From a virus, in IMG/VR virus record IMGVR_UViG_3300045988_109372, positions 1-37,407 of that record: a stretch of 37,407 nt of DNA. The stretch is one strand, 5' to 3'. Below, one piece after another: positions 880 to 35,883 of the stretch (positions within the stretch are counted from its first letter, which is position 1; each line of letters begins with the position of its first letter). The position numbers and the translations under genes are program-made. The notes below the pieces were generated by a model, which worked only from the letters and a program-made list of their open reading frames with translations, had not been told where the DNA came from and searched no databases.

Positions 880-2193
880 TTGATAAAAGACAATTACACC
901 TTTAAAGAAATAATCGAGGCGCAGAAAAAGCCTCTTGAAGAGAAAATACATCTATCTGTGGATGTTCTCAGAAAAGCGTATGCTCTGAGCCGTCACAATG
1001 TGGCGATTGCCTTTTCGGGCGGAAAAGACAGCACGGTGGTTGCTGATCTTATAGAACGCTTTTTGCCAACAGAGTTTTCAAAAACATTCTGCATATTCGG
1101 TAACACAGGCGTTGAATTTCCTGAGAGCTTGAAATTTGCACGGAGCTATGGCAAGGAACACTTCGGAGAACGCTTCAAAGAAACTAAGTTTCTTGAGTTA
1201 AAAGAGCCTGAACTTAGATACGATTTTGCAAAAAAGATAGTACAGCGACTTGAAGAAGAAAACGCACTTGATGAAATCTTAAAGCCGGACGGAAAGTTGA
1301 AAGGTCAGAAAGCATTGATTAAAGCGGCAGAAAAGAGAGGATATATCCTCGACCGTTCTAATTGCTTCCCGATTGGTACAAAGATGACATTTGCATACTG
1401 CTTGGAGCAATATGGCGCTCCGCTTCTCGGTAAATCTGCGTCAAAACTTGATGCGCATCGTATAAACATCGAATGCTTTTTGAAATACTCAGACACTGCT
1501 TCGGAAAAAGATGAACTGAAAGAGTATTACGACACATTGAGAGAATGTAAATACTCTCAGCATTGTTGCACGTTACTCAAAAAGAAACCGAGTGAAAAGA
1601 TACAGGCAGAGCTTGATTGCGATGTTATTATAAAGGGACTTATGGCGGCAGAGAGTCATACAAGAATGGTAAATTTTGCAACAAGAGGTCATATTTTTGC
1701 AAGCCATAGACCTCATGTTAAAGATGGCTCATTCTATCATGTATCGCCGATTGCGATGTGGACCGATGATGACATTTGGGAGTATATCCATAAATATGAC
1801 GTAGAATATTCGAGTCTTTACGACATCACATACACCGATAAGGATGCCAAAGAAAAGCATATCAAGCGCAACGGATGTATGTTTTGCGGTACGGATATTC
1901 AGTTCAAAGATAACCATCTTTCTGTTCTTCGACAAACACATCCTAAAGCATATCGTGTTTGTATGGATCAGTATGGATATAAGCATGAGTTAAACAAGCT
2001 CTTTGAAATGAAGAAAAATCAAAACATCTTAGCGGCAACAACCGATTTAGGCAGAACAGCAAGAATGATAGATGCAGCAGGAGAACAGCTTACGCTTCTT
2101 GACGTGCGACCTTGCGCTTATGATGATTTTGCCGAGATGGTTGATCTGAAAGGAACGGGACTTGATAATGAATACGATCCTGATGCGAATTAA
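880..2193 (+). CDS. PAPS-reductase-family (PP-loop ATP pyrophosphatase-like) protein with a large internal insertion
   Basis: TTG start 6 nt after AGGAAAG. It has the PP-loop motif AFSGGKDST, then CCTLLKKKP, AAESHTR and a C-terminal NGCMFCG, which is the usual PAPS-reductase layout. About 115 extra residues sit between the PP-loop and the CC motif. Confidence 0.8.
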   Translation: MIKDNYTFKEIIEAQKKPLEEKIHLSVDVLRKAYALSRHNVAIAFSGGKDSTVVADLIERFLPTEFSKTFCIFGNTGVEFPESLKFARSYGKEHFGERFKETKFLELKEPELRYDFAKKIVQRLEEENALDEILKPDGKLKGQKALIKAAEKRGYILDRSNCFPIGTKMTFAYCLEQYGAPLLGKSASKLDAHRINIECFLKYSDTASEKDELKEYYDTLRECKYSQHCCTLLKKKPSEKIQAELDCDVIIKGLMAAESHTRMVNFATRGHIFASHRPHVKDGSFYHVSPIAMWTDDDIWEYIHKYDVEYSSLYDITYTDKDAKEKHIKRNGCMFCGTDIQFKDNHLSVLRQTHPKAYRVCMDQYGYKHELNKLFEMKKNQNILAATTDLGRTARMIDAAGEQLTLLDVRPCAYDDFAEMVDLKGTGLDNEYDPDAN

Positions 2194-9682: not shown

Positions 9683-9870
9683 AAACAGTAACACTAATAC
9701 TACCCGATTATTATGATGAAGCGATAACGGTTACCGCTGTCGGTCAGCGGAAAATTGATAAAAATCGCACAGTGGTAAATATTCATACTGCAACAGAGCG
9801 TGTTGAAAACGGACAGATTATCGATTTGAAGGAAACCTTTATCGGCAAGGAGAATGCTAATGAACGCTAA
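9679..9870 (+). CDS. Hypothetical protein (63 aa)
   Basis: ATGA overlap with the upstream stop, preceded by AAGGAGA. Confidence 0.45.
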   Translation: MKTVTLILPDYYDEAITVTAVGQRKIDKNRTVVNIHTATERVENGQIIDLKETFIGKENANER

Positions 9871-10285
9871 AGAATACCTATCACGCTATCACTTTATCAA
9901 CATACGCATAAATCAAAAGATAGATCAGCAACGACAGCTTCGGGAGCTCGCTACCAACATATCGCCGTCATCGGGGGGTGGACACAGTAGCGGGGTATCA
10001 GACAAGGTTGGTATGGCTGTTGCAAAAATTGCAACACTGGAGCAGGAGATAAACACAGAGATAGATGAGCTTATCCGTGTTAAAGCAGAGATAGAGCATA
10101 CTATATCGGCAGTGACTGACGAGCGGATAAGGCTGATACTGATAGCACGGTACATAAACTGTAAGACATTTGAGTATATTGCCTGTGAGATGCATTACTC
10201 ATATAAGCAGATATGCCGACTTCACGGTAAAGCACTTCTGAGGGTGCAAGATGTCCTTGAATGTCCTATTGCATCTGTGGTATGA
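9860..10285 (+). CDS. Putative late-gene transcriptional activator (RinA/ArpU/sigma-70 region-4-like HTH)
   Basis: It is the last gene before the packaging module. The C-terminus RLILIARYINCKTFEYIACEMHYSYKQICRLHGKALLRV looks like a sigma region-4 HTH. The N-terminal AKEYLSRY..I pattern is typical of these activators. ATG 9860 lies 7 nt after AAGGAG. Confidence 0.55.
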   Translation: MNAKEYLSRYHFINIRINQKIDQQRQLRELATNISPSSGGGHSSGVSDKVGMAVAKIATLEQEINTEIDELIRVKAEIEHTISAVTDERIRLILIARYINCKTFEYIACEMHYSYKQICRLHGKALLRVQDVLECPIASVV

Positions 10286-17578: not shown

Positions 17579-18061
17579 GTGTTCACAGAACTTTTAAACA
17601 AGAAAATTTACATCACAGATACTTTATATCTGCGATATGACATAAAAGCGTTTATTGAAGCGGAAGAAAAGGGCATCAGCCCGTTTGAACTGACATTCCC
17701 TCTGCCGCTTGACTACATCAGAGCGGGGCTTCGGTGTTGCTTTGATGAACTGGGGTTCAGCTCGGCACAGCGTTCCGAAATAGTGTCCGACCTAACAACA
17801 CAGTTATCACAGGAATATCTGCAGGACAGGGTGCTTGCCGCAACGACCGCCGCACTTCCTGCGCCGATAGTGGGAAGCAAGCCGACAGAAGAAAAGCCCG
17901 ACTTCAAGAAGCTCCGCAGTCTGTTTATAGATATTATGGGACGAACGGAGGAAGAATTCACATATTCCACGCTGTACGAAATAACGGACAGATGGAACGA
18001 CTACGCAACGTTTATGGGGTACAAAGCCCCGACAGAGAGGTTTGTACAGTATGACGATTAA
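17579..18061 (+). CDS. Putative tail assembly chaperone
   Basis: GTG start 6 nt after AAAGGAG. It follows the tube gene. The C-terminal half (EEEFTYSTLYEITDRWNDY) resembles the T-part of G/GT chaperones. No downstream frameshift extension is possible, because TerL follows. Confidence 0.45.
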   Translation: MFTELLNKKIYITDTLYLRYDIKAFIEAEEKGISPFELTFPLPLDYIRAGLRCCFDELGFSSAQRSEIVSDLTTQLSQEYLQDRVLAATTAALPAPIVGSKPTEEKPDFKKLRSLFIDIMGRTEEEFTYSTLYEITDRWNDYATFMGYKAPTERFVQYDD

Positions 18062-19712
18062 AGACAGCCGTGCATACAAATACGCCGTGTGGGCATCGCA
18101 GGACAGCTCCGGCAAGGTCGGAAGATACGTCAGAAAGCAGTGCGCCGAATGGCTTAAAGCTGTCGATGACGGTTATGTAGATGTTCAGGAATGGAACAAG
18201 ATAACCGCACTGCTCAAAGCCATACAGCACCCGGACTTAGGCCGTGATATGTACTCATCGCTTGAAGATTACAGCTTGCTTTTTATCTATGCGGTGCTTT
18301 GCACAAAAACAGACGGAAAACTGTATTACAGCACGGGACTGCTCGAAATCGCCCGAAAGAACTACAAGACGTTCACAGCGGCGGTAATATTCATCATCGG
18401 TATGCTGACGCTGCCCCGATTTTCCCGTCTGTTCTCTGTAGCTCCCGACTTAAAGCTGTCAAGCGAGCTGAAAGTAGCAATTAAGAAAATCATAAAATCT
18501 TCACCGCTGCTTGAAAAGCATTTCAAGGTTATGCGGTCTGAGATACGCTGTCTGATGTGCGACACGGAGTACACGCCGCTTGCGTATAGTAAGGATAAGC
18601 TGGACGGTAAGCTGGCTCACTTGTTTCTTGCCGATGAAGTCGGGGCTATGGACGGCTATCCGGTTGAAGCAATGCGTTCCTCGCAGATTACGCTTAAGAG
18701 CAAGCTCGGAATACTGATTTCCACACAGTACCCGAATGATGATAACGGCTTAAAGGACGAAATCGACATAGCCAAGAAACAACTTGACGGGGTGTACAGC
18801 TCCGGCAAGAAATATTTTGCATTGCTGTATGAGCCGGACATTGAGCTTGTACCCGACTGGAAGACGAACGACAGCGTGCTGTATCAGTCGAACCCTGTAG
18901 CTGTCGATAATGCAGATCTGTTCTCGGAACTGAAAGACAACCGTCAACTTGCCGTGCTGTATGAAAACAAGCGCGAGAACTTCCTCTGCAAGCACTGTAA
19001 TATTCAGTACAAGGGTGTCGGCAGTGAGGGCTATGTTGACCTTATATCCGTGCAAAACTGCTCTGAGGACGTGCCTGACGAGTTCTGGCGGGGGAAGATA
19101 GTCTATCTCGGGCTTGACCTCTCACAGACTGAGGATAACACAGCGCTCGCTATGATATGCTATCACGAGGGCAAGATATATGTTAAGGTGGTAGCGTTTG
19201 TTCCTGCCGAAAAGGTTGAGGAAAAATCGGTAAAGGAGCACATCAATTACAAGACACATATCGCAAACGGTGATTGCTTTGCGTGCGGCGATTATATCAT
19301 AGACTACGGATTTGTGGAAAATTACATACTGACGCTGAAAGAAAAGTACGGCGTTATAATAGCTCAGCTTGGCTTTGACCGCTGGAACGCACTCTCAACG
19401 GTGCAGAAGCTCGAAAGCGCAGAAGATCCGATAGAGTGCGTAGAGATACGACAGCATTCAAGCGTGCTTCATGCTCCGACAAAGTGGCTCAAAGAACAGA
19501 TACTCACAGGAAATGTCGTTTTCGCAAAGAACGAACTGCTTGAGATAAATTTCAGCAACGCAAGATGTACAGAGGACACAAATTTAAATAAATACGTTAA
19601 TAAAAAGCGCTCTGCCGGCAAGGTCGATATGGTGGTGTCGCTGATAAATGCGGTGTATCTGCTTCAGCAGGAGATACTCAACGGCGATTGCGGCGTGTTT
19701 GTGCAGTATTGA
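18051..19712 (+). CDS. terL: Terminase large subunit (Terminase_1 family) in a non-canonical position
   Basis: The N-terminus is AYKYAVWA...GRYVRKQCAEWL. It has a Walker-A-like ARKNYKT, Walker B LFLADEVGA, the nuclease-half motifs GLDLSQTEDNTAL and FDRWNA, and a C-terminal KVDMVVSLINAV. All are in the order remembered for PF03354-type TerL. ATG 18051 is preferred over TTG 18042. Confidence 0.85.
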   Translation: MTIKDSRAYKYAVWASQDSSGKVGRYVRKQCAEWLKAVDDGYVDVQEWNKITALLKAIQHPDLGRDMYSSLEDYSLLFIYAVLCTKTDGKLYYSTGLLEIARKNYKTFTAAVIFIIGMLTLPRFSRLFSVAPDLKLSSELKVAIKKIIKSSPLLEKHFKVMRSEIRCLMCDTEYTPLAYSKDKLDGKLAHLFLADEVGAMDGYPVEAMRSSQITLKSKLGILISTQYPNDDNGLKDEIDIAKKQLDGVYSSGKKYFALLYEPDIELVPDWKTNDSVLYQSNPVAVDNADLFSELKDNRQLAVLYENKRENFLCKHCNIQYKGVGSEGYVDLISVQNCSEDVPDEFWRGKIVYLGLDLSQTEDNTALAMICYHEGKIYVKVVAFVPAEKVEEKSVKEHINYKTHIANGDCFACGDYIIDYGFVENYILTLKEKYGVIIAQLGFDRWNALSTVQKLESAEDPIECVEIRQHSSVLHAPTKWLKEQILTGNVVFAKNELLEINFSNARCTEDTNLNKYVNKKRSAGKVDMVVSLINAVYLLQQEILNGDCGVFVQY

Positions 19713-19737
19713 CAATATTGTCTGTTCGCGGTATAAT
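19709..19737 (+). promoter_or_regulatory. Consensus sigma-70/sigA promoter (TTGACA-17 nt-TATAAT) for the moron cassette
   Basis: TTGACA at 19709..19714, overlapping the TerL stop codon. An exact 17-nt spacer follows, then TATAAT at 19732..19737. AAAGGAGG and ATG 19763 lie downstream. Confidence 0.7.
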
Positions 19738-19762
19738 GTAGGTAGAAAAGGAGGAAATACTT

Positions 19763-20029
19763 ATGTATTTGAAATTGTTAACTATGGGCGGACAGGCAGC
19801 GACAGCGTCCAGTGCATCATTATCCCCGATTTTTTCGGCTGTGCTTATAGGAATAGCGCTAGGTGCCTTCATTTTTTATGGCATTTGTAAAATTGGAATA
19901 CCTAAGAATGCAGACAGAAACGAGAAATACTATTTGCAGGGGATTTACAGATTTTTAGCGGTAATATGCTTGATTATTGTGATTTCTGCATGTGTAGGTC
20001 TGACAATGGCAATATCGATGTTTATTTAA
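19763..20029 (+). CDS. Small integral membrane protein (88 aa, about 2 TM helices)
   Basis: There is a strong RBS, AAAGGAGG. Two hydrophobic segments are present (IFSAVLIGIALGAFIFYGI and FLAVICLIIVISACVGLTMAI). It shares its first 7 codons with the next gene. Confidence 0.65.
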   Translation: MYLKLLTMGGQAATASSASLSPIFSAVLIGIALGAFIFYGICKIGIPKNADRNEKYYLQGIYRFLAVICLIIVISACVGLTMAISMFI

Positions 20030-20050
20030 TGCAAAAAAGAGAGGTCACTT

Positions 20051-21067
20051 ATGTATTTGAAATTGTTGACTACTGATTCCGCAACCAATATCGTGAATGG
20101 CATATTTATTATAATTATGCTGTTTATATTGTGGGCGTGTATAAATTTGTTTTGTTATTCAATAAAACGTAGCAAACTAAACAAACAGTATATTGAAGAA
20201 AGCGGTTACAAGGCTACCGATGAATTGGGTGATCTTAAAGTAGATAAAAATAATTCTGTCTGGTGGGTAAAAAATTATTTTGGTGAGCCTAAAATTCATA
20301 ACTTCGGCGAAGTGATTGATTATGAACTTGTTGTAAATGACAACACTGTCAAAGGAAAAGGTGCATTTTCAAGAGCTGTTGCAGGTGGATTATTAGCAGG
20401 CGGTGTCGGAGCGGTGATTGGAGCATCTACAGCCAAGCGCATAACTGTTGTTACAGCACTGTATATTAACGTGTATCTGAAAGACGGCACACTTGAAAGA
20501 ATAAACTTCATTAACACCGCAACTAAAGCAGATTCTTTTACATATAACACGATGAAGGATTGTGCTGAAAAAGCCAGTGCTTTGTTTACGGCTATGATTG
20601 CGGACAATGAAAGCAAAAACGCCGCTCCTGCTCAGGCTATAAGTGCGGCAGATGAGATAGCAAAGTACAAAAAACTGCTTGATGACGGCGCAATAACCGA
20701 AGAAGAATACAACGCAGTGAAAAAGCAGACTTTTGAAAATGTTACAAGCGGACTGACTGAATATGATACGTTTTTCACGAAAGTAGCCGGCGTAACGCAT
20801 AACGGCATACAGCTTATATTGCCAAAATTAAAAAGCGGCTTACCTTTATGTTTTGTCAGAGAAGCAGATAATCCTTATGACGACAATGCTATAAGGGTAG
20901 AGTGCAACGGCAGAAAAATCGGATATTTGCGAGCTGAGCTGGCGGCTGATTTAGCGCCTATTGTAGATAATGGCGGTGCGATAACAGGCACTATTGCAAA
21001 AATAACGGGCGGCGACGGCGCATCGTATGGCTGTAATATAGAAATTACAGTATGGACAAAACTTTAA
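20051..21067 (+). CDS. Membrane-anchored protein: N-terminal TM, Gly-zipper-containing domain, SHOCT motif, C-terminal HIRAN domain
   Basis: The TM segment is IVNGIFIIIMLFILWACINLFCY, followed by KRSKLNK (positive-inside, so the C-terminus is cytoplasmic). It has a Gly-zipper (AVAGGLLAGGVGAVIGAS) and a SHOCT-like DEIAKYKKLLDDGAITEEEYNAVKKQ. The HIRAN signature is KVAGVTH...SGLPLCFVREADNPYDDNAIRVECNGRKIGYLRAELAADLAPIVDNGG. Confidence 0.8.
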   Translation: MYLKLLTTDSATNIVNGIFIIIMLFILWACINLFCYSIKRSKLNKQYIEESGYKATDELGDLKVDKNNSVWWVKNYFGEPKIHNFGEVIDYELVVNDNTVKGKGAFSRAVAGGLLAGGVGAVIGASTAKRITVVTALYINVYLKDGTLERINFINTATKADSFTYNTMKDCAEKASALFTAMIADNESKNAAPAQAISAADEIAKYKKLLDDGAITEEEYNAVKKQTFENVTSGLTEYDTFFTKVAGVTHNGIQLILPKLKSGLPLCFVREADNPYDDNAIRVECNGRKIGYLRAELAADLAPIVDNGGAITGTIAKITGGDGASYGCNIEITVWTKL

Positions 21068-21071
21068 GATC

Positions 21072-21105
21072 AAGCACATCTGAGAGGGTGTGCTTTTCTT
21101 ATGCC
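21072..21105 (+). terminator. Hairpin element E (hairpin family) after the HIRAN gene
   Basis: agcacatc-tgagag-ggtgtgct followed by tttcttatgcc. It starts 5 nt after the stop. Confidence 0.55.
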
Positions 21106-21121
21106 CAAAACTGAATAAATC

Positions 21122-21153
21122 ATCCACTCCGAAAGGGGTGGATTTTTTATACC
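21122..21153 (+). terminator. Hairpin element C (GAAA tetraloop, hairpin family)
   Basis: atccactcc-gaaa-ggggtggat followed by tttttatacc (a run of six T). Confidence 0.6.
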
Positions 21154-30983: not shown

Positions 30984-31490
30984 TTACTTATTTTTGCTTT
31001 GATTTTCTGATATAAAGTGCTTAATGCCTCTGTAATATCCAAGCAAGAACGCGGTTTGTTCTGCGCTACTTGCCACCTTGTCATTTGTGTAATCGCTGCG
31101 ATCAATAGTTGACATAACCTCAGCTATCCATATGTTCTCCTGCTCTGATAAAATGCACATTGGCATAGCTTTTTTGGCAAGTTCCAGCAATGCAATCGTT
31201 GGGTGCTCTACGGCATAAACTAGTTCGGTAGGTGCTGTGATTTTTGGAATTTTCGATGATATATAACCATAAATTTCACCGACGCTCTCAAACATATCTG
31301 CTCTTGTAAATTTAACTTTCTCGGCAACGTCAAAATCATCAAGAACGGTTTTAAGTTTTTTTACAAGTTCAGGGGAAGGATTTCTTAAGCCGTTCTCAAT
31401 CCTGCTTAATTGCGATTTATTCGTGTCACAAATCTGAGCTAATTGCACAAGCGTGTACCCTTTTGCTTTTCGCGCTTCTTTTAACGTCAT
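30984..31490 (-). CDS. XRE-family HTH protein with an uncharacterised C-terminal domain of about 110 aa
   Basis: MTLKEARKAKGYTLVQLAQICDTNKSQLSRIENGLRNPS is a classic XRE HTH. An AAAGGA RBS precedes it. It is the second gene of a leftward operon. Confidence 0.75.
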   Translation of the reverse strand: MTLKEARKAKGYTLVQLAQICDTNKSQLSRIENGLRNPSPELVKKLKTVLDDFDVAEKVKFTRADMFESVGEIYGYISSKIPKITAPTELVYAVEHPTIALLELAKKAMPMCILSEQENIWIAEVMSTIDRSDYTNDKVASSAEQTAFLLGYYRGIKHFISENQSKNK

Positions 31491-31543: not shown

Positions 31544-31888
31544 TTAGTCCTTAATCTCTTCTTCCGCCGCTGCCCAGACATTTCCGCACTCGGCGAGGTC
31601 ATATTCGCCGTCCTCGTCATAGTGACGTTCTTCGATATAGCTGACTTCGCAGTCTAAAATTTTTCCACCCCACGTGCCGGTAAGACGCGCAACAGTCTTA
31701 TGCTTTGAAAGTTCTGTTTTTGCTTCTTCAAGGTTATCATATAGCTTTTCTTCAAAAGAACCGTTCCGTGTGCCGTTTAACTGATCGAAAGCTTCGTATA
31801 TTGAGCTTTTTCCTGCCTTGATATCCTTGATTGCTCTACTGTCGTTGATCTCGCCGTACTCTGTTACTAATGCGAATTTCTTTTCCAT
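31544..31888 (-). CDS. Hypothetical acidic protein (114 aa)
   Basis: ATG at 31888 (minus strand) follows GAGGAT. The longer ORF up to 32068 would run through the promoter. No family was recognised. Confidence 0.55.
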   Translation of the reverse strand: MEKKFALVTEYGEINDSRAIKDIKAGKSSIYEAFDQLNGTRNGSFEEKLYDNLEEAKTELSKHKTVARLTGTWGGKILDCEVSYIEERHYDEDGEYDLAECGNVWAAAEEEIKD

Positions 31889-31948: not shown

Positions 31949-31977
31949 ATTATAACACGCTTTGCTGAAATTGTCAA
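31949..31977 (-). promoter_or_regulatory. Consensus promoter (TTGACA-17 nt-TATAAT) reading leftward
   Basis: The minus strand has TTGACA (plus-strand TGTCAA at 31972..31977), an exact 17-nt spacer, and TATAAT (plus-strand ATTATA at 31949..31954). It lies about 60 nt upstream of ATG 31888. Confidence 0.7.
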
Positions 31978-33558: not shown

Positions 33559-34086
33559 TCATATATTTGCGTTTTTACCGTAGAATATCTTGCCGCTTTC
33601 CAAGTTCTTTTTGTAATAGCAGGATTTAGAACGGATTATATCCGGGTGCAAGCACTTTTTAGCATCTGAACACTTCAAATATAATCCGCAACATCCAAAA
33701 TGCTCTGTTGGCTCAAATATTCTGACATTCTCATCAGTAATAAGTTCAGCAGCTTTTACAGCTTCGTTTTTTGTGTGGAATGTACATTGTATGAAATTCT
33801 GAGGGCTTTTCAGCAATTTTGTACCTGCAGGAGATATTTCAAGCGTATCATAAACTCTTTTATTGCAAGAAATTACCGTGAATTTTGTATTCACTTTGAA
33901 GAAAAGACATTTTTCAAAATAGACTGAATACCCGGTAAGTTTGTCCTTGCTTTTGTTTTCCTGTATGCTGAAAAGTCCGTTTGAACATTTCCATTTTGCT
34001 GAAACTGTTAATATTATGTTTTCTAAAGTGGTTTTACAATCTAAATCTTCGGGTTCATTTTCAAATAATGCCATCTGCTCTATCAT
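33559..34086 (-). CDS. Hypothetical Cys-rich protein (175 aa)
   Basis: The start overlaps the upstream stop by 4 nt. The C-terminal cluster is HFGCCGLYLKCSDAKKCLHPDIIRSKSCYYKKNLESGKIFYGKN (6 Cys plus His, metal-binding-like). No family name could be assigned with confidence. Confidence 0.6.
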   Translation of the reverse strand: MIEQMALFENEPEDLDCKTTLENIILTVSAKWKCSNGLFSIQENKSKDKLTGYSVYFEKCLFFKVNTKFTVISCNKRVYDTLEISPAGTKLLKSPQNFIQCTFHTKNEAVKAAELITDENVRIFEPTEHFGCCGLYLKCSDAKKCLHPDIIRSKSCYYKKNLESGKIFYGKNANI

Positions 34087-35168
34087 AACTGCACGTCCTT
34101 TTCTTTTAGTATCATAATCGGATAGCCTTTGCTTCTGAGTTCTATTGCTTTTTTCGCCTTAGTGCCATAAGTTCCGCAAGCCCAGCTGTCAGACCCTCTC
34201 TCACCTATAAGAAGAATGTCGGTTTTTCTTGTAACGCCGCTAACTACTGTAGCGCCTATTTCGGACAATCTTTCTTGTACTTCTTGCCTACTCCCATAAT
34301 CGAAATCGCCGGTCAGACAGATAGACTTTTTGCTAAGTTCTACATCAACAGCGCCTATTTCTGTATTGAGTGGATCAATTTGTGCTTTGAAAAATTCAAG
34401 AAGATAATCAAGCTCGGATTGTTCTATTATCCCGTCCTCAATTACTTTCCAGATTGCGTTATTTATAATGTCGTATGGGTAATTACCTGCAAGCTGCTCA
34501 TTGTTAATCATCCATTCTTCAAGACCTAACAGTTCTTCTTGTGTCAGAATGTCATCGCAGGTTATACCTATCAATATGCCGTGCAATGTTTGTAACCCTT
34601 TTGTAATAGGATTCAGCACTCTTTGTTTCGGCGGCTTTATCTCAAGTACAAGAGCGGAATGATTTTTCAATGCTGTCATTAAGCTGTGAGTATGGTAGCA
34701 GTCTGCAAGAGCTCTGTGATGTATACCGCTATCTTTTATTCCGAGCTGTATTATCATATCTTCGAGCTTGTGGCTGACATCGGGGTATTCTTGCTTGCAC
34801 ACAGCTAAAGTATCATATGTATCATTTTTAAAATCAAGCCCACAAGCAACGCATTTTTTACTGATAAAATTAGCGTCAAATGCAATATTATGTCCTACAA
34901 CCGTATCATTATCAATAAATCGCAGAAAATCAGATAGGGTATCGTCAAGCTCTTTTGCATCTGCCAACATATCATCAGTTATGCCTGTAATCTGAGAAAC
35001 AGCTTTCGACAATGGCTTGCTTGCTTTTATAAGCCGAGAAAATTCAGCGACAACTAAGTTATTACGAACACGCAAAGCACCGATTTCAATTATATCATCC
35101 TTGTCCGGTGACAAGCCTGTTGTTTCAATGTCTACTATTGTGTAGTCGTTCAGTTCCTGTATATTCAT
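34083..35168 (-). CDS. DEDDh 3'-5' exonuclease (DnaQ/epsilon-like) fused to a helical middle domain and a C-terminal BRCT domain
   Basis: ExoI is VDIETTGL, ExoII is GHNIAFDANFI and ExoIII is HHRALADC. The C-terminus ICLTGDFDYGSRQEVQERLSEIGATVVSGVTRKTDILLIGE...KAIELRSKGYPIMILKE is BRCT-like, as in NAD-ligase C-termini. Confidence 0.8.
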   Translation of the reverse strand: MNIQELNDYTIVDIETTGLSPDKDDIIEIGALRVRNNLVVAEFSRLIKASKPLSKAVSQITGITDDMLADAKELDDTLSDFLRFIDNDTVVGHNIAFDANFISKKCVACGLDFKNDTYDTLAVCKQEYPDVSHKLEDMIIQLGIKDSGIHHRALADCYHTHSLMTALKNHSALVLEIKPPKQRVLNPITKGLQTLHGILIGITCDDILTQEELLGLEEWMINNEQLAGNYPYDIINNAIWKVIEDGIIEQSELDYLLEFFKAQIDPLNTEIGAVDVELSKKSICLTGDFDYGSRQEVQERLSEIGATVVSGVTRKTDILLIGERGSDSWACGTYGTKAKKAIELRSKGYPIMILKEKDVQL

Positions 35169-35398
35169 TGTTGCACCTCATTTTCACAATCTCCAACAAA
35201 TTTTATATCAGAATACAAATGACCTCTGCTTATATGCTTTAATTCATGTTTTAAAGCTAACATTTGTTTAGCAGGGCACTTGTTCTGATTTATAAAGACA
35301 ATGTAATCACCGTTTTTTATCACAGTTACACCGTTGACGGAAGACGGTAAATCTGCTGTATAAATATAAACGCCGTCAATATCACACTCAATTCTCAA
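35165..35398 (-). CDS. Minimal ImmA/IrrE-like metallopeptidase (77 aa)
   Basis: It has the HExxH motif LKHELKHISRGH, preceded by GVTVIKNGDYIVFINQN as in ImmA/IrrE proteins. The TTG start overlaps the repressor stop. It is much shorter than typical ImmA. Confidence 0.55.
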   Translation of the reverse strand: MRIECDIDGVYIYTADLPSSVNGVTVIKNGDYIVFINQNKCPAKQMLALKHELKHISRGHLYSDIKFVGDCENEVQQ

Positions 35399-35772
35399 TT
35401 ATCATCACCTTCAGACAACAATGCTTCAATTATTTTCGCAGCTTTTTCTACATCTTTTTTAGTGGCATTTTTGGTAAGTGAAAATATCATCCTAAGCTCC
35501 GGACGGTTTTTTAGTTCTTCAAGATATTCAGTGAGTTCCTCGTCATCATTAACAAGAGCGTCCGATGAATCTTCATTCCAACCCATTAAGTAAGCAGGAG
35601 TAGTGCTAAGTGCATTAGCAATCAGCTCAATCCTATCAGAAGGAATGTTAGTAATAATTCCTTTCTCGTATTTATAAATGTTTTGCTTGGTCGTGTTAGC
35701 TTTTTCGGCAAGTTCTCCTTGCGATAATTTAGCTTCTTCACGAAGTAGTTTTATTTTTTCGCCTATAGTCAT
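35395..35772 (-). CDS. CI/ImmR-like XRE-family repressor
   Basis: MTIGEKIKLLREEAKLSQGELAEKANTTKQNIYKYEKG is an XRE HTH. It is divergent from the Cro-like gene. ATG 35772 is preferred over GTG 35781 (AAGGGG RBS). Confidence 0.85.
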   Translation of the reverse strand: MTIGEKIKLLREEAKLSQGELAEKANTTKQNIYKYEKGIITNIPSDRIELIANALSTTPAYLMGWNEDSSDALVNDDEELTEYLEELKNRPELRMIFSLTKNATKKDVEKAAKIIEALLSEGDDN

Positions 35773-35792
35773 TTTTGTCACCCCTTGTATAT

Positions 35793-35821
35793 ATTATATA
35801 CTTAATACGGTAACTTGTCAA
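35793..35821 (-). promoter_or_regulatory. Leftward consensus promoter of the lysogeny operon
   Basis: The minus strand has TTGACA (plus-strand TGTCAA at 35816..35821), a 17-nt spacer, and TATAAT (plus-strand ATTATA at 35793..35798). The -35 lies inside the left arm of a 15-bp inverted repeat (35811..35825). Confidence 0.7.
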
Positions 35822-35854: not shown

Positions 35855-35883
35855 TTGACAAGTTACAAAAGACGTGATATAAT
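35855..35883 (+). promoter_or_regulatory. Rightward consensus promoter of the early (Cro-side) operon
   Basis: TTGACA at 35855..35860, a 17-nt spacer, and TATAAT at 35878..35883. The -35 lies inside the right arm of the inverted repeat (35851..35865). Confidence 0.7.

Follow-up and report, generated by a model that had tools for sequence, protein, structure and literature searches.

The siphovirus-like prophage in IMG/VR record IMGVR_UViG_3300045988_109372 carries, directly 3' of its large terminase (TerL) gene (18042..19712, + strand), a moron with genes for two membrane proteins. We tentatively read it as a prophage-expressed exclusion or defense factor acting at the inner face of the membrane, with a probability of about 0.45. 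The whole stretch analyzed, 37,407 nucleotides (nt) assigned to a siphovirus-like prophage from its gene content, is called the window below; all cassette features lie on its + strand. Both open reading frames (ORFs) expected from an initial annotation are present. The first (19763..20029) encodes an 88-amino-acid (aa) protein with two hydrophobic segments; the second (20051..21067) encodes a 338-aa protein in which a transmembrane (TM) helix, a PH_gly_zipper domain, a SHOCT motif, and a HIRAN domain follow one another, as judged from Pfam, from PF27000 matches of relatives, and from an AlphaFold2 (AF2) model. Five features were observed: the moron status, this architecture, the chimeric origin of the 338-aa gene, purifying selection, and a recurrent fusion of PH_gly_zipper with HIRAN. 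The narrower proposal that the protein works as a nuclease-free trap for 3' DNA ends we regard as doubtful.

A moron is an independent transcription unit added to a phage genome (the Juhala/Hendrix definition, summarized in PMC3594210), and the cassette has the host-type promoter, terminators, and deviant base composition of one. We compared the window with about 140 related phages of Oscillospiraceae/Ruminococcus and, as close relatives, with 46 phages from IMG/VR whose TerL is ≥96% identical; among these 46, the cassette is present, absent, or replaced at the TerL junction, as the moron interpretation had anticipated. Its promoter (19709..19737) matches the sigma-A/sigma-70 consensus TTGACA-17-TATAAT at 12 of 12 positions, and the TerL stop codon (TGA, 19710..19712) sits within the −35 hexamer, just as first described. 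From 14 to 27 kb, no other site matches at all 12 positions. The whole window holds four perfect sites, versus 0.01 expected from shuffled sequences, and the other three are all in the lysogeny/immunity region: one near the integrase (31949..31977, − strand) and a divergent pair (35793..35821, − strand, and 35855..35883, + strand) flanking a helix-turn-helix (HTH) gene (35395..35781), which is probably the immunity switch. Since perfect promoters are otherwise confined to the lysogeny region, the cassette promoter, alone in the structural region, belongs to the phage's class of promoters for host RNA polymerase. In every relative with membrane or lipoprotein cargo at this site, the hexamers are kept, with two spacer haplotypes. 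The promoter is absent from all alleles with toxin cargo, in which TerL ends in TAG and a ribosome-binding site (RBS) follows directly. Thus, the promoter is linked to the cargo, as expected for genes meant for expression from the prophage. A perfect 12-nt palindrome, GACAATATTGTC (19711..19722), overlaps the −35 hexamer in a haplotype shared with L084, L106, L107, and L128; as an operator it was discarded, being missing from the other spacer haplotype, so it is probably there by chance.

The two consecutive hairpin terminators noted at the outset are both present, and folding energies were computed for them. Terminator 1 (21072..21105; stem 21072..21095, then a T tract; −13.7 kcal/mol, z = −2.5) travels with the HIRAN module, following it in L001, L098, and L106 whatever comes next, and in this respect is the cassette's own. 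Terminator 2 (21122..21153; stem 21122..21143, then a T tract; −14.8 kcal/mol, z = −3.8), which is preceded by CCCAAAACTGAATAAATC, proved to be a phage-backbone element that forms the right border of the slot. It is kept in nearly all alleles, those with promoterless toxin cargo included, which rules it out as the moron's own. In L107, L110, and L161, another hairpin takes its place. A strong terminator inside co-oriented structural genes, 5' of the 165-aa gene and the gene for the tape-measure protein (TMP), means that late transcription must either antiterminate or restart. The impression that the cassette is richer in A+T than its surroundings was confirmed: G+C is 0.33 to 0.34 at 19800-20400 and 0.39 to 0.43 in the remaining cassette, versus 0.47 to 0.50 in the flanks.

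The cassette interrupts the structural genes between TerL and the tape-measure region, as described, and sits before the 165-aa and TMP genes. Cargo is hypervariable in the interval from the TerL stop codon to the 165-aa gene, a slot whose borders are conserved and for which we found at least 12 different contents in the 46 relatives. Polymorphic-toxin-like genes occupy it in 19 and a 230-aa TM-PH_gly_zipper-SHOCT gene alone in 12. The 338-aa gene is followed by genes for a ribbon-helix-helix (RHH) protein and a Bro-N protein in four, combined with the 88-aa gene, with or without RHH/Bro-N, in four more, and alone in one. The remaining slots hold a 148-aa TM-HIRAN gene with or without the 88-aa gene (2/46), a lipoprotein gene (2/46), the 88-aa gene together with the 230-aa gene (1/46), or the 88-aa gene alone (1/46, and also L014-L017). 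Counted by module, PH_gly_zipper is carried by 22 relatives, toxin cassettes by 19, HIRAN by 11, the 88-aa gene by 7, and the lipoprotein by 2.

These contents do not bear out the idea of a self-contained two-gene module: the 88-aa gene and a PH_gly_zipper gene occur together in only 5 of the 46 relatives, each is found alone in the slot of sister phages, and the 338-aa gene is itself a chimera. A direct repeat of 39 nt brackets the 88-aa gene. Its left copy (19746..19784) contains an RBS (GGAGG, 19750..19754), the ATG, and the first seven codons, MYLKLLT; the right copy (20034..20072), 82% identical, contains a weaker RBS (GAGG, 20041..20044) and the ATG and MYLKLLT of the 338-aa gene. A left border shared by the cassettes, consisting of promoter, RBS, and first seven codons, explains why both ORFs begin with MYLKLLT and why the repeat surrounds the 88-aa gene, and we take the left copy to be the common left recombination border of the cassettes. 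A coevolved pair is ruled out, each gene being found alone in the slot and the 88-aa gene being an insertion bounded by the repeat. From the sequences we conclude that each gene is a cassette in its own right, an alternative to the other, and that their stacking here is fortuitous.

The chimeric origin of the 338-aa gene is evident from DNA alignment and from the sequences C25, P0184, and P0185. The junction reads AVKKQT (20729..20746). The 230-aa parent ends ...NAKKKQLMEI before its stop codon, the 148-aa TM-HIRAN parent reads ...HKAKKQAFENVTSG... at the junction, and the fusion point is the KKQ common to the 230-aa parent and the linker of the 148-aa protein (...HKAKKQAFENVTSGLTEYD...). In the alignment, the ancestral terminator is separated from the end of SHOCT by an insertion that comprises the HIRAN-coding segment and terminator 1. 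The HIRAN domain of the window nests among those of free-standing 148-aa TM-HIRAN genes, which makes its fusion recent. We conclude that the 338-aa gene arose by recent in-frame fusion of a 230-aa TM-PH_gly_zipper-SHOCT gene to a 148-aa TM-HIRAN gene. The fused form has spread: its cluster (P0001) comprises 157 member sequences, and it is found in 9 of the 46 IMG/VR relatives. A word-indexed search with HIRAN only gave just 3 matches.

The slot holds other cargo as well. An RHH repressor-like gene and then a Bro-N gene stand 3' of the HIRAN gene in many relatives; they were considered as partners specific to HIRAN and rejected, as they also follow toxin cargo. Toxin cassettes occupy the slot after TerL in L089-L093, L095, L099, L101, L105, L110, and L124, and a site between the tail-tube and 160-aa genes in L001, L006, L008, and L014; an identical pair of 225- and 58-aa genes is found in two different tail-module slots in different phages. 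The toxin-like proteins share an N terminus (MTLIQGYFGIIELCHSDRYDLFL...RYNHNHDPHTGRFTSG) and differ at the C terminus, with Ntox50, PBECR3 nuclease, putative DUF6782-like metallopeptidase, and other domains; their cassettes lack promoters of their own, and the small ORF 3' of each is probably an immunity gene. L094 and L126 carry a 172-aa predicted lipoprotein (MKKFLLLFFTVLIVIVSTGCSG...) under its own consensus promoter with an extended −10 element. It matched no family and resembles lipoprotein-type exclusion factors such as Ltp.

The AF2 model of the 338-aa protein, built with 143 sequences, has a mean predicted local distance difference test (pLDDT) score of 86.9 and shows a long TM helix, a PH-like beta-sandwich with a C-terminal helix, the two SHOCT helices, and HIRAN. 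Pfam, PADLOC, and NCBIfam scans revealed no catalytic domain, in agreement with the initial annotation. The TM helix (20090..20158, residues ~14 to 36) reaches a Kyte-Doolittle maximum of 2.67, is followed by KRSKLNK, and is part of an AF2 helix spanning residues 10 to 51. Lys and Arg residues number one on its N side versus four on its C side, which favors an N-out/C-in orientation. Hydropathy, flanking charge, and the model thus uphold the positive-inside anchor proposed earlier, with the remainder of the protein predicted to be cytoplasmic. The internal SHOCT motif (PF09851; 20651..20728, residues 201 to 226) scores 30.5 bits against a cutoff of 27 (E = 2.8e-7), which validates the first assignment, and its AF2 helices span residues 199 to 211 and 217 to 232. 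In the 230-aa parent, SHOCT is C terminal; it is internal in the 338-aa protein because HIRAN has been appended. SHOCT domains are predicted to be intracellular and to anchor other domains to the inner leaflet (PMC11237479).

What had been described as a Gly-zipper-containing domain corresponds to PH_gly_zipper (PF27000; 20180..20635), a PH-like beta-sandwich with a C-terminal helix. The family was assigned from precomputed matches on relatives 87 to 97% identical over the domain, including P0001 (same length, 92% identical) and the 230-aa proteins. The domain also matches phrog_888 (E = 9e-39), a family of unknown function, and only PHROGs families so labeled matched the cassette and slot proteins; no NCBIfam model matched the 88-aa or the 338-aa protein. 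In the AF2 model, strands occupy residues 57 to 154 and a helix residues 163 to 190, with pLDDT above 90 outside one loop. The best Foldseek matches of this part in the PDB are PH domains, and they are weak (E = 0.1 to 0.5, nothing below E = 0.09). The loop in question, the glycine zipper FSRAVAGGLLAGGVGAVIGASTAKR (20357..20431, residues 103 to 127), is the most conserved part of the family, its glycines being invariant or nearly so across 109 members. It is also the only unstructured part of the 338-aa model, with pLDDT below 50 in both models. With a hydropathy of 1.57, just below the TM threshold, it may be an element that dips into the membrane. A second TM helix here, which would put HIRAN outside the cell, is unlikely given the subthreshold hydropathy and the insertion within a globular PH-like domain. 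That topology is also disfavored by two features of relatives that support a cytoplasmic side: zinc-ribbon N termini in PH_gly_zipper proteins without a TM helix and BRCT-like domains following HIRAN. We therefore place, by inference, the C-terminal part, including HIRAN, in the cytoplasm.

To our knowledge, HIRAN is known almost solely from eukaryotic fork-remodeling enzymes, and its roles in bacteria and phages have hardly been studied. The domain in the 338-aa protein (PF08797; 20765..21055, residues 239 to 335) is securely identified, as had been proposed, with 60.4 bits versus a cutoff of 24.7 (E = 1.6e-16). Residues 235 to 337 are modeled at a pLDDT of ~95, and Foldseek aligns them with DNA-bound human HLTF HIRAN (4S0N) at E = 6.7e-7 (TM-score of ~0.65, root mean square deviation of 3.0 Å over 106 columns) and with lp_0118 of L. 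plantarum (3K2Y) at E = 2e-5; by sequence, the match to HLTF HIRAN reaches E = 2.4e-7. The 3'-end pocket was mapped from HLTF alignments and from conservation across 40 family members, with positions 71 and 72 placed through the 3K2Y alignment and what we take to be the N-terminal sequence of HLTF. The counterparts of N91 and D94 (N274 and D277) are invariant (40/40), that of F142 (Y326) is Tyr in 37, that of Y93 (Y276) is Tyr in 30, and that of Y72 (H250) is aromatic in 31. In HLTF, whose HIRAN domain binds the 3'-OH end of single-stranded DNA (PMC11237066), Y72 and Y93 stack on the bases of the bound dinucleotide (PMC4666394), and an N90A/N91A mutant is disrupted in HIRAN function (PMC11237066). 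Because the pocket is largely but not fully kept, DNA-end binding by the HIRAN domain of the 338-aa protein is likely rather than assured.

The 88-aa protein consists of two hydrophobic segments, seen by hydropathy, around a K/R-rich loop; the loop is predicted to be cytoplasmic, with both termini outside. Only seven clusters of homologues were found, and none has a Pfam domain. The gene stands alone in the same slot in L014-L017 and L108. A 93-aa homologue with 54% identity (P0035, represented by L018-L022) occurs on ~97 contigs in a chromosomal, nonprophage context, where a 101-aa gene and a DUF1413 gene follow it near a two-component system.

Both cassettes are under purifying selection. 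The ratio of nonsynonymous to synonymous substitution rates (dN/dS) is 0.06 for the 88-aa ORF. For the parts of the 338-aa protein, computed among nine other 338-aa alleles, it is 0.03 in HIRAN (dS of ~0.2), 0.11 in PH_gly_zipper-SHOCT, and 0.51 in the TM anchor, a value typical of a simple anchor. An exhaustive profile search returned 4,418 relatives, 1,008 of them at E ≤ 1e-10. Close HIRAN relatives are nearly all membrane anchored, with TM segments in 33 of 40, and take the form of TM-HIRAN proteins of 136 to 171 aa (the commonest), TM-HIRAN-BRCT-like proteins, or HIRAN-TM-BLIP proteins. Fusions of PH_gly_zipper and HIRAN arose in at least three to four separate HIRAN clades (the window type, P0016, P0036, and the P0039/41/42/148 group), in both domain orders. 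This repeated, independent fusion argues that the two domains act in the same place and process.

The settings of these genes in other phages point in the same direction. A PH_gly_zipper-SHOCT gene lies directly upstream of the TMP gene in the Clostridioides difficile myoviruses CDMH1 and phiCDKH02, adjoins the integrase gene in Enterococcus phage EH-TP1, and lies between integrase and S24 repressor genes in another prophage. A HIRAN-TM-BLIP gene (P0026) likewise stands between S24 repressor and integrase genes, and a TM-HIRAN-BRCT gene (P0018) is followed by ImmA-like and ORF6N genes. Positions next to TMP and between integrase and repressor are classical sites of lysogenic conversion and superinfection exclusion.

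Taken together, these observations are consistent with the following scheme. A single host sigma-A promoter would transcribe two stacked, independently mobile lysogenic-conversion cassettes, and the 338-aa protein would be made in the lysogen, anchored in the membrane, and cytoplasmic throughout its C-terminal part. PH_gly_zipper-SHOCT would then form a membrane-hugging, probably oligomeric scaffold, and HIRAN would bind free 3' DNA ends just beneath the membrane, the most likely role of the protein being to shield the lysogen from superinfecting phages at or soon after DNA entry. Capture of an end of the incoming linear genome could hinder its circularization or replication without a nuclease. 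An HNH gene adjoins the putative TerS and portal genes of the window, which suggests HK97-like cos packaging for this phage group, and cohesive 3' ends would be expected for phages of this HNH/cos type if the assumed polarity holds. The 88-aa protein may be a separate exclusion factor of the small-membrane-protein type exemplified by HK97 gp15. In the most general version, prophages of gut Firmicutes would widely encode membrane-tethered HIRAN proteins as a class of entry-exclusion factors that dispense with a nuclease, seize the 3' end of the incoming linear genome at the injection channel, and stop circularization and replication by binding alone. TM-HIRAN on its own would belong to this class, as would the fusions it has repeatedly formed with PH_gly_zipper(-SHOCT) or BRCT; PH_gly_zipper-SHOCT would be an oligomeric adapter and raise the local amount of binder at the membrane or the tape-measure channel. 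As stated, this generalization is unlikely to be correct.

Several points weigh against an exclusion factor. We infer the anti-phage function from context only, and the slot also holds toxin cassettes and Bro-N/RHH genes, so position in it does not by itself imply exclusion. A PADLOC search, suggested at the outset, matched the cassette only through the HIRAN component of the candidate system PDC-M03, without HipA, and matched no complete system. The predicted topology depends on hydropathy and charge. The HLTF-type pocket, retained at the equivalents of N91 and D94, is not retained at R71, whose equivalent (T249) is Thr in 35 of 40 members, with Arg not conserved. The counterpart of N90 (D273), D or N across the family, is Asp here. 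In HLTF, an R71E substitution abolishes binding to 3'-OH ends (PMC11366124), and with Thr at this position the binding mode may differ. The polarity of the cos ends in this phage group is an assumption. Lacking a nuclease, the protein could only work stoichiometrically, on the one or two DNA ends that each infection brings, which is feasible in principle. Finally, the fusion could be only mildly beneficial, as both parents function alone.

By analogy, the 338-aa protein would join the prophage-carried, membrane-anchored nucleic-acid-binding proteins that serve in conflicts between phages. The statement that no described system has its architecture holds in that we found no paper on a TM/PH_gly_zipper/SHOCT/HIRAN protein, nor any literature combining glycine zipper, PH, and prophage; it does not hold for function, for which HK97 gp15, AbiP/PdpSau, and SNIPE are analogues, none of them homologous to the cassette proteins. 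HK97 gp15, reportedly a superinfection-exclusion protein (Cumby et al., 2012), is the closest analogue in position and concept. It, too, is a membrane protein expressed from a prophage by a self-promoted, terminated moron in the tail operon just 5' of the tape-measure gene. The moron lies between the tail chaperone (TAC) and TMP genes, and its inner-membrane product blocks DNA entry in a manner dependent on the tail and tape measure of the incoming phage (PMC3594210). Unlike the 338-aa protein, a large protein with cytoplasmic PH-like, SHOCT, and HIRAN parts in a Gram-positive host, gp15 is a small YebO-like protein of Enterobacteria without a DNA-binding domain, and no homology is known; the 88-aa protein is closer to it in size, by analogy only.

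In architecture, the closest analogues are AbiP of Lactococcus and PdpSau of an S. aureus prophage, which combine a TM anchor with a nonenzymatic nucleic-acid-binding domain, both parts of AbiP being required; PdpSau is encoded by a prophage accessory gene adjoining late or lysis genes. Their binding domain is OB-like, not HIRAN, and they abort infection after DNA entry. No Abi model matched in PADLOC at E ≤ 1, and domain type (PH-like/HIRAN versus OB-like) sets the AbiP/AbiC/PdpSau group apart. In mechanism, the closest analogue is SNIPE, a membrane-bound protein with DUF4041 and a GIY-YIG nuclease that binds DNA, acts during phage genome injection, and contacts tape-measure proteins (bioRxiv 10.1101/2025.11.03.685801). 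At the N terminus, the adapter of SNIPE is a TM helix in some homologues and a PH or DUF4428 domain in others, modules of a kind also seen in the PH_gly_zipper family. SNIPE needs its nuclease, however, whereas any effect of the 338-aa protein would come from binding alone, and membership in SNIPE is ruled out because Pfam and PADLOC found neither DUF4041 nor a GIY-YIG nuclease.

Two further comparisons concern HIRAN itself. With HLTF/Rad5-type HIRAN and lp_0118 (4S0N, 4XZF, 5BNH, 3K2Y), the domain shares its fold and significant sequence similarity; an NPYD.NAI motif is retained as well, and so, for the most part, is the aromatic lining of the 3'-end pocket. It differs from HLTF/Rad5 by the membrane tether, the absence of an SNF2 motor and a RING domain, and the Thr in place of R71. 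PDC-M03 is a two-gene unit of a HipA kinase and HIRAN (PMC13245101), and its PDC-M03B models match the HIRAN part at E = 1e-7. There, HIRAN is predicted to be an antitoxin, and PDC-M03B is not described as membrane anchored. Membership is ruled out: none of the window ORFs scanned encodes HipA, and the neighbors are TerL and the 165-aa tail-region protein.

Of the other explanations, abortive infection survives best, though it is quite unlikely in our judgment. HIRAN would sense the ends of linear replicating or packaged phage DNA, SHOCT and PH parts would oligomerize, Gly-zipper loops would insert, and the cell would depolarize and die before phage release. No element of the family is better conserved than the Gly-zipper, which is hydrophobic and lacks structure in the model of the monomer. 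The precedents nearest in architecture, AbiP and PdpSau, abort infection once the DNA has entered. Many PH_gly_zipper relatives have a zinc ribbon instead of a TM helix and could be latent membrane-inserting effectors. On the other hand, the commonest form, TM-HIRAN of 136 to 171 aa, has no effector-like part, PH_gly_zipper-SHOCT mostly occurs without any sensor domain, and a constitutive pore former would be risky for the host.

Less probable still is a conversion function unrelated to phages, in which the tethered end binder intercepts the 3'-leading strand of DNA arriving by transformation or conjugation, or in which the cassette alters envelope physiology. What speaks for prophage expression and for a HIRAN domain in the cytoplasm close to the membrane applies here as it does to exclusion; this explanation can also draw on the binding of single-stranded 3'-OH ends by HLTF HIRAN (PMC11237066) and on the chromosomal, nonprophage homologue of the 88-aa protein, P0035. 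However, both the alternative cargo of the slot and the sites occupied in other prophages are characteristic of genes for inter-phage conflict, and none of the contexts examined ties these proteins to genes for competence or conjugation.

A role in the phage's own lytic cycle is very improbable. Transcription would come mainly from the late operon, and the protein would hold DNA ends at the membrane during replication or packaging, with phi29 p16.7 as the model. The cassette is co-oriented with the late genes and adjoins TerL, and a combination of TM, oligomerization, and DNA-binding domains resembles a membrane DNA organizer. The cassette is nonetheless dispensable, PH_gly_zipper being missing from more than half of the near-identical phages and HIRAN from three quarters of them. 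A host-type promoter of its own, which the toxin alleles of the slot do not have, precedes it, and homologues elsewhere occur in integrase-repressor modules.

We give even less weight to membrane-held HIRAN, joined by BRCT in relatives, as a sensor of DNA damage or DNA ends that feeds the lysis-lysogeny switch together with neighboring RHH/Bro-N or ImmA/antirepressor modules. RHH repressor-like and Bro-N genes follow the HIRAN gene in many relatives, ImmA-like and ORF6N genes follow P0018, and P0026 lies between the S24 repressor and integrase genes. Conversely, RHH and Bro-N also follow HIRAN-less toxin cargo (L099, L105, L110, L124) and are absent from the window and L098, so their adjacency reflects slot stacking, and the protein has no output domain. 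Least probable of all is that the fusion is a neutral by-product of cassette shuffling in which HIRAN is merely carried along and only PH_gly_zipper-SHOCT, or only the 88-aa gene, has an effect. The two parents were joined at a short microhomology, KKQ, and the near identity of the HIRAN part to free-standing 148-aa TM-HIRAN genes makes the event recent, but the dN/dS of 0.03 on HIRAN within the fusions (dS of ~0.2), the spread of the fused form (157 in the P0001 cluster, 9/46 relatives), and the independent fusions in other clades and in opposite domain order speak against a neutral fusion.

As for the rest of the window, the genes run in the order replication module, HNH, putative TerS, portal, protease, capsid, tail tube, 160-aa gene, and TerL, and, beyond the cassette, 165-aa gene, TMP, tail genes, holin, amidase, and integrase. 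Loci in GTDB anchored on TerL place the phage in metagenome-assembled genomes of Oscillospiraceae/Ruminococcus/Ruminiclostridium. The sole large terminase gene lies ~6.5 kb from the putative TerS and portal genes, with the 160-aa tail-region gene on one side and the tape-measure region on the other; siphoviruses do not usually have their genes in this order. This placement is kept in all relatives down to 57% TerL identity, with TMP directly 3' of TerL in several, which rules out TerL as part of the inserted element. At TerL residues 104 to 110 (about 18351..18371), the sequence of a Walker A-like motif is RKN[YF]KT, in which an aromatic residue replaces the glycine of canonical GK[ST] P-loops; the motif is conserved in all ~150 relatives and is thus a family trait, not decay.

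Beyond the integrase, a gene at 34083..35168 (− strand) encodes a DEDDh (RNase_T-type) exonuclease fused to BRCT and matches the PADLOC candidate PDC-S48 at E = 1e-31; BRCT is a theme shared with many TM-HIRAN relatives, in which it follows HIRAN. At the start of the replication module (880..2193, + strand) lies a gene for a PAPS-reductase-domain protein, which the BrxP and DndC models of PADLOC match. The perfect promoter at 31949..31977 is upstream of a 114-aa ORF (ATG at 31888, − strand) and an HTH gene (30984..31490), between the lysis genes and integrase, and may drive a second prophage-expressed unit. An ORF at 9854..10285 gives weak matches to DUF1492 and sigma-70 region 4, and an Rfam scan of the whole window gave no match.

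These findings bring to light a large clade of membrane-anchored HIRAN proteins that are carried as prophage morons in abundant, little-studied gut Clostridia and are repeatedly fused to a second uncharacterized phage family (PH_gly_zipper/phrog_888) with more than 1,000 relatives. Near-identical phages that differ only in the cargo of the slot offer a natural experiment for prophage-prophage conflict in the gut. If the function is unrelated to defense, the locus is still a documented case of cassette stacking and domain fusion in a moron hotspot. If DNA ends are indeed captured at the membrane, the 338-aa protein would be a nuclease-free counterpart to SNIPE and would provide a molecular handle on DNA entry into Gram-positive bacteria.

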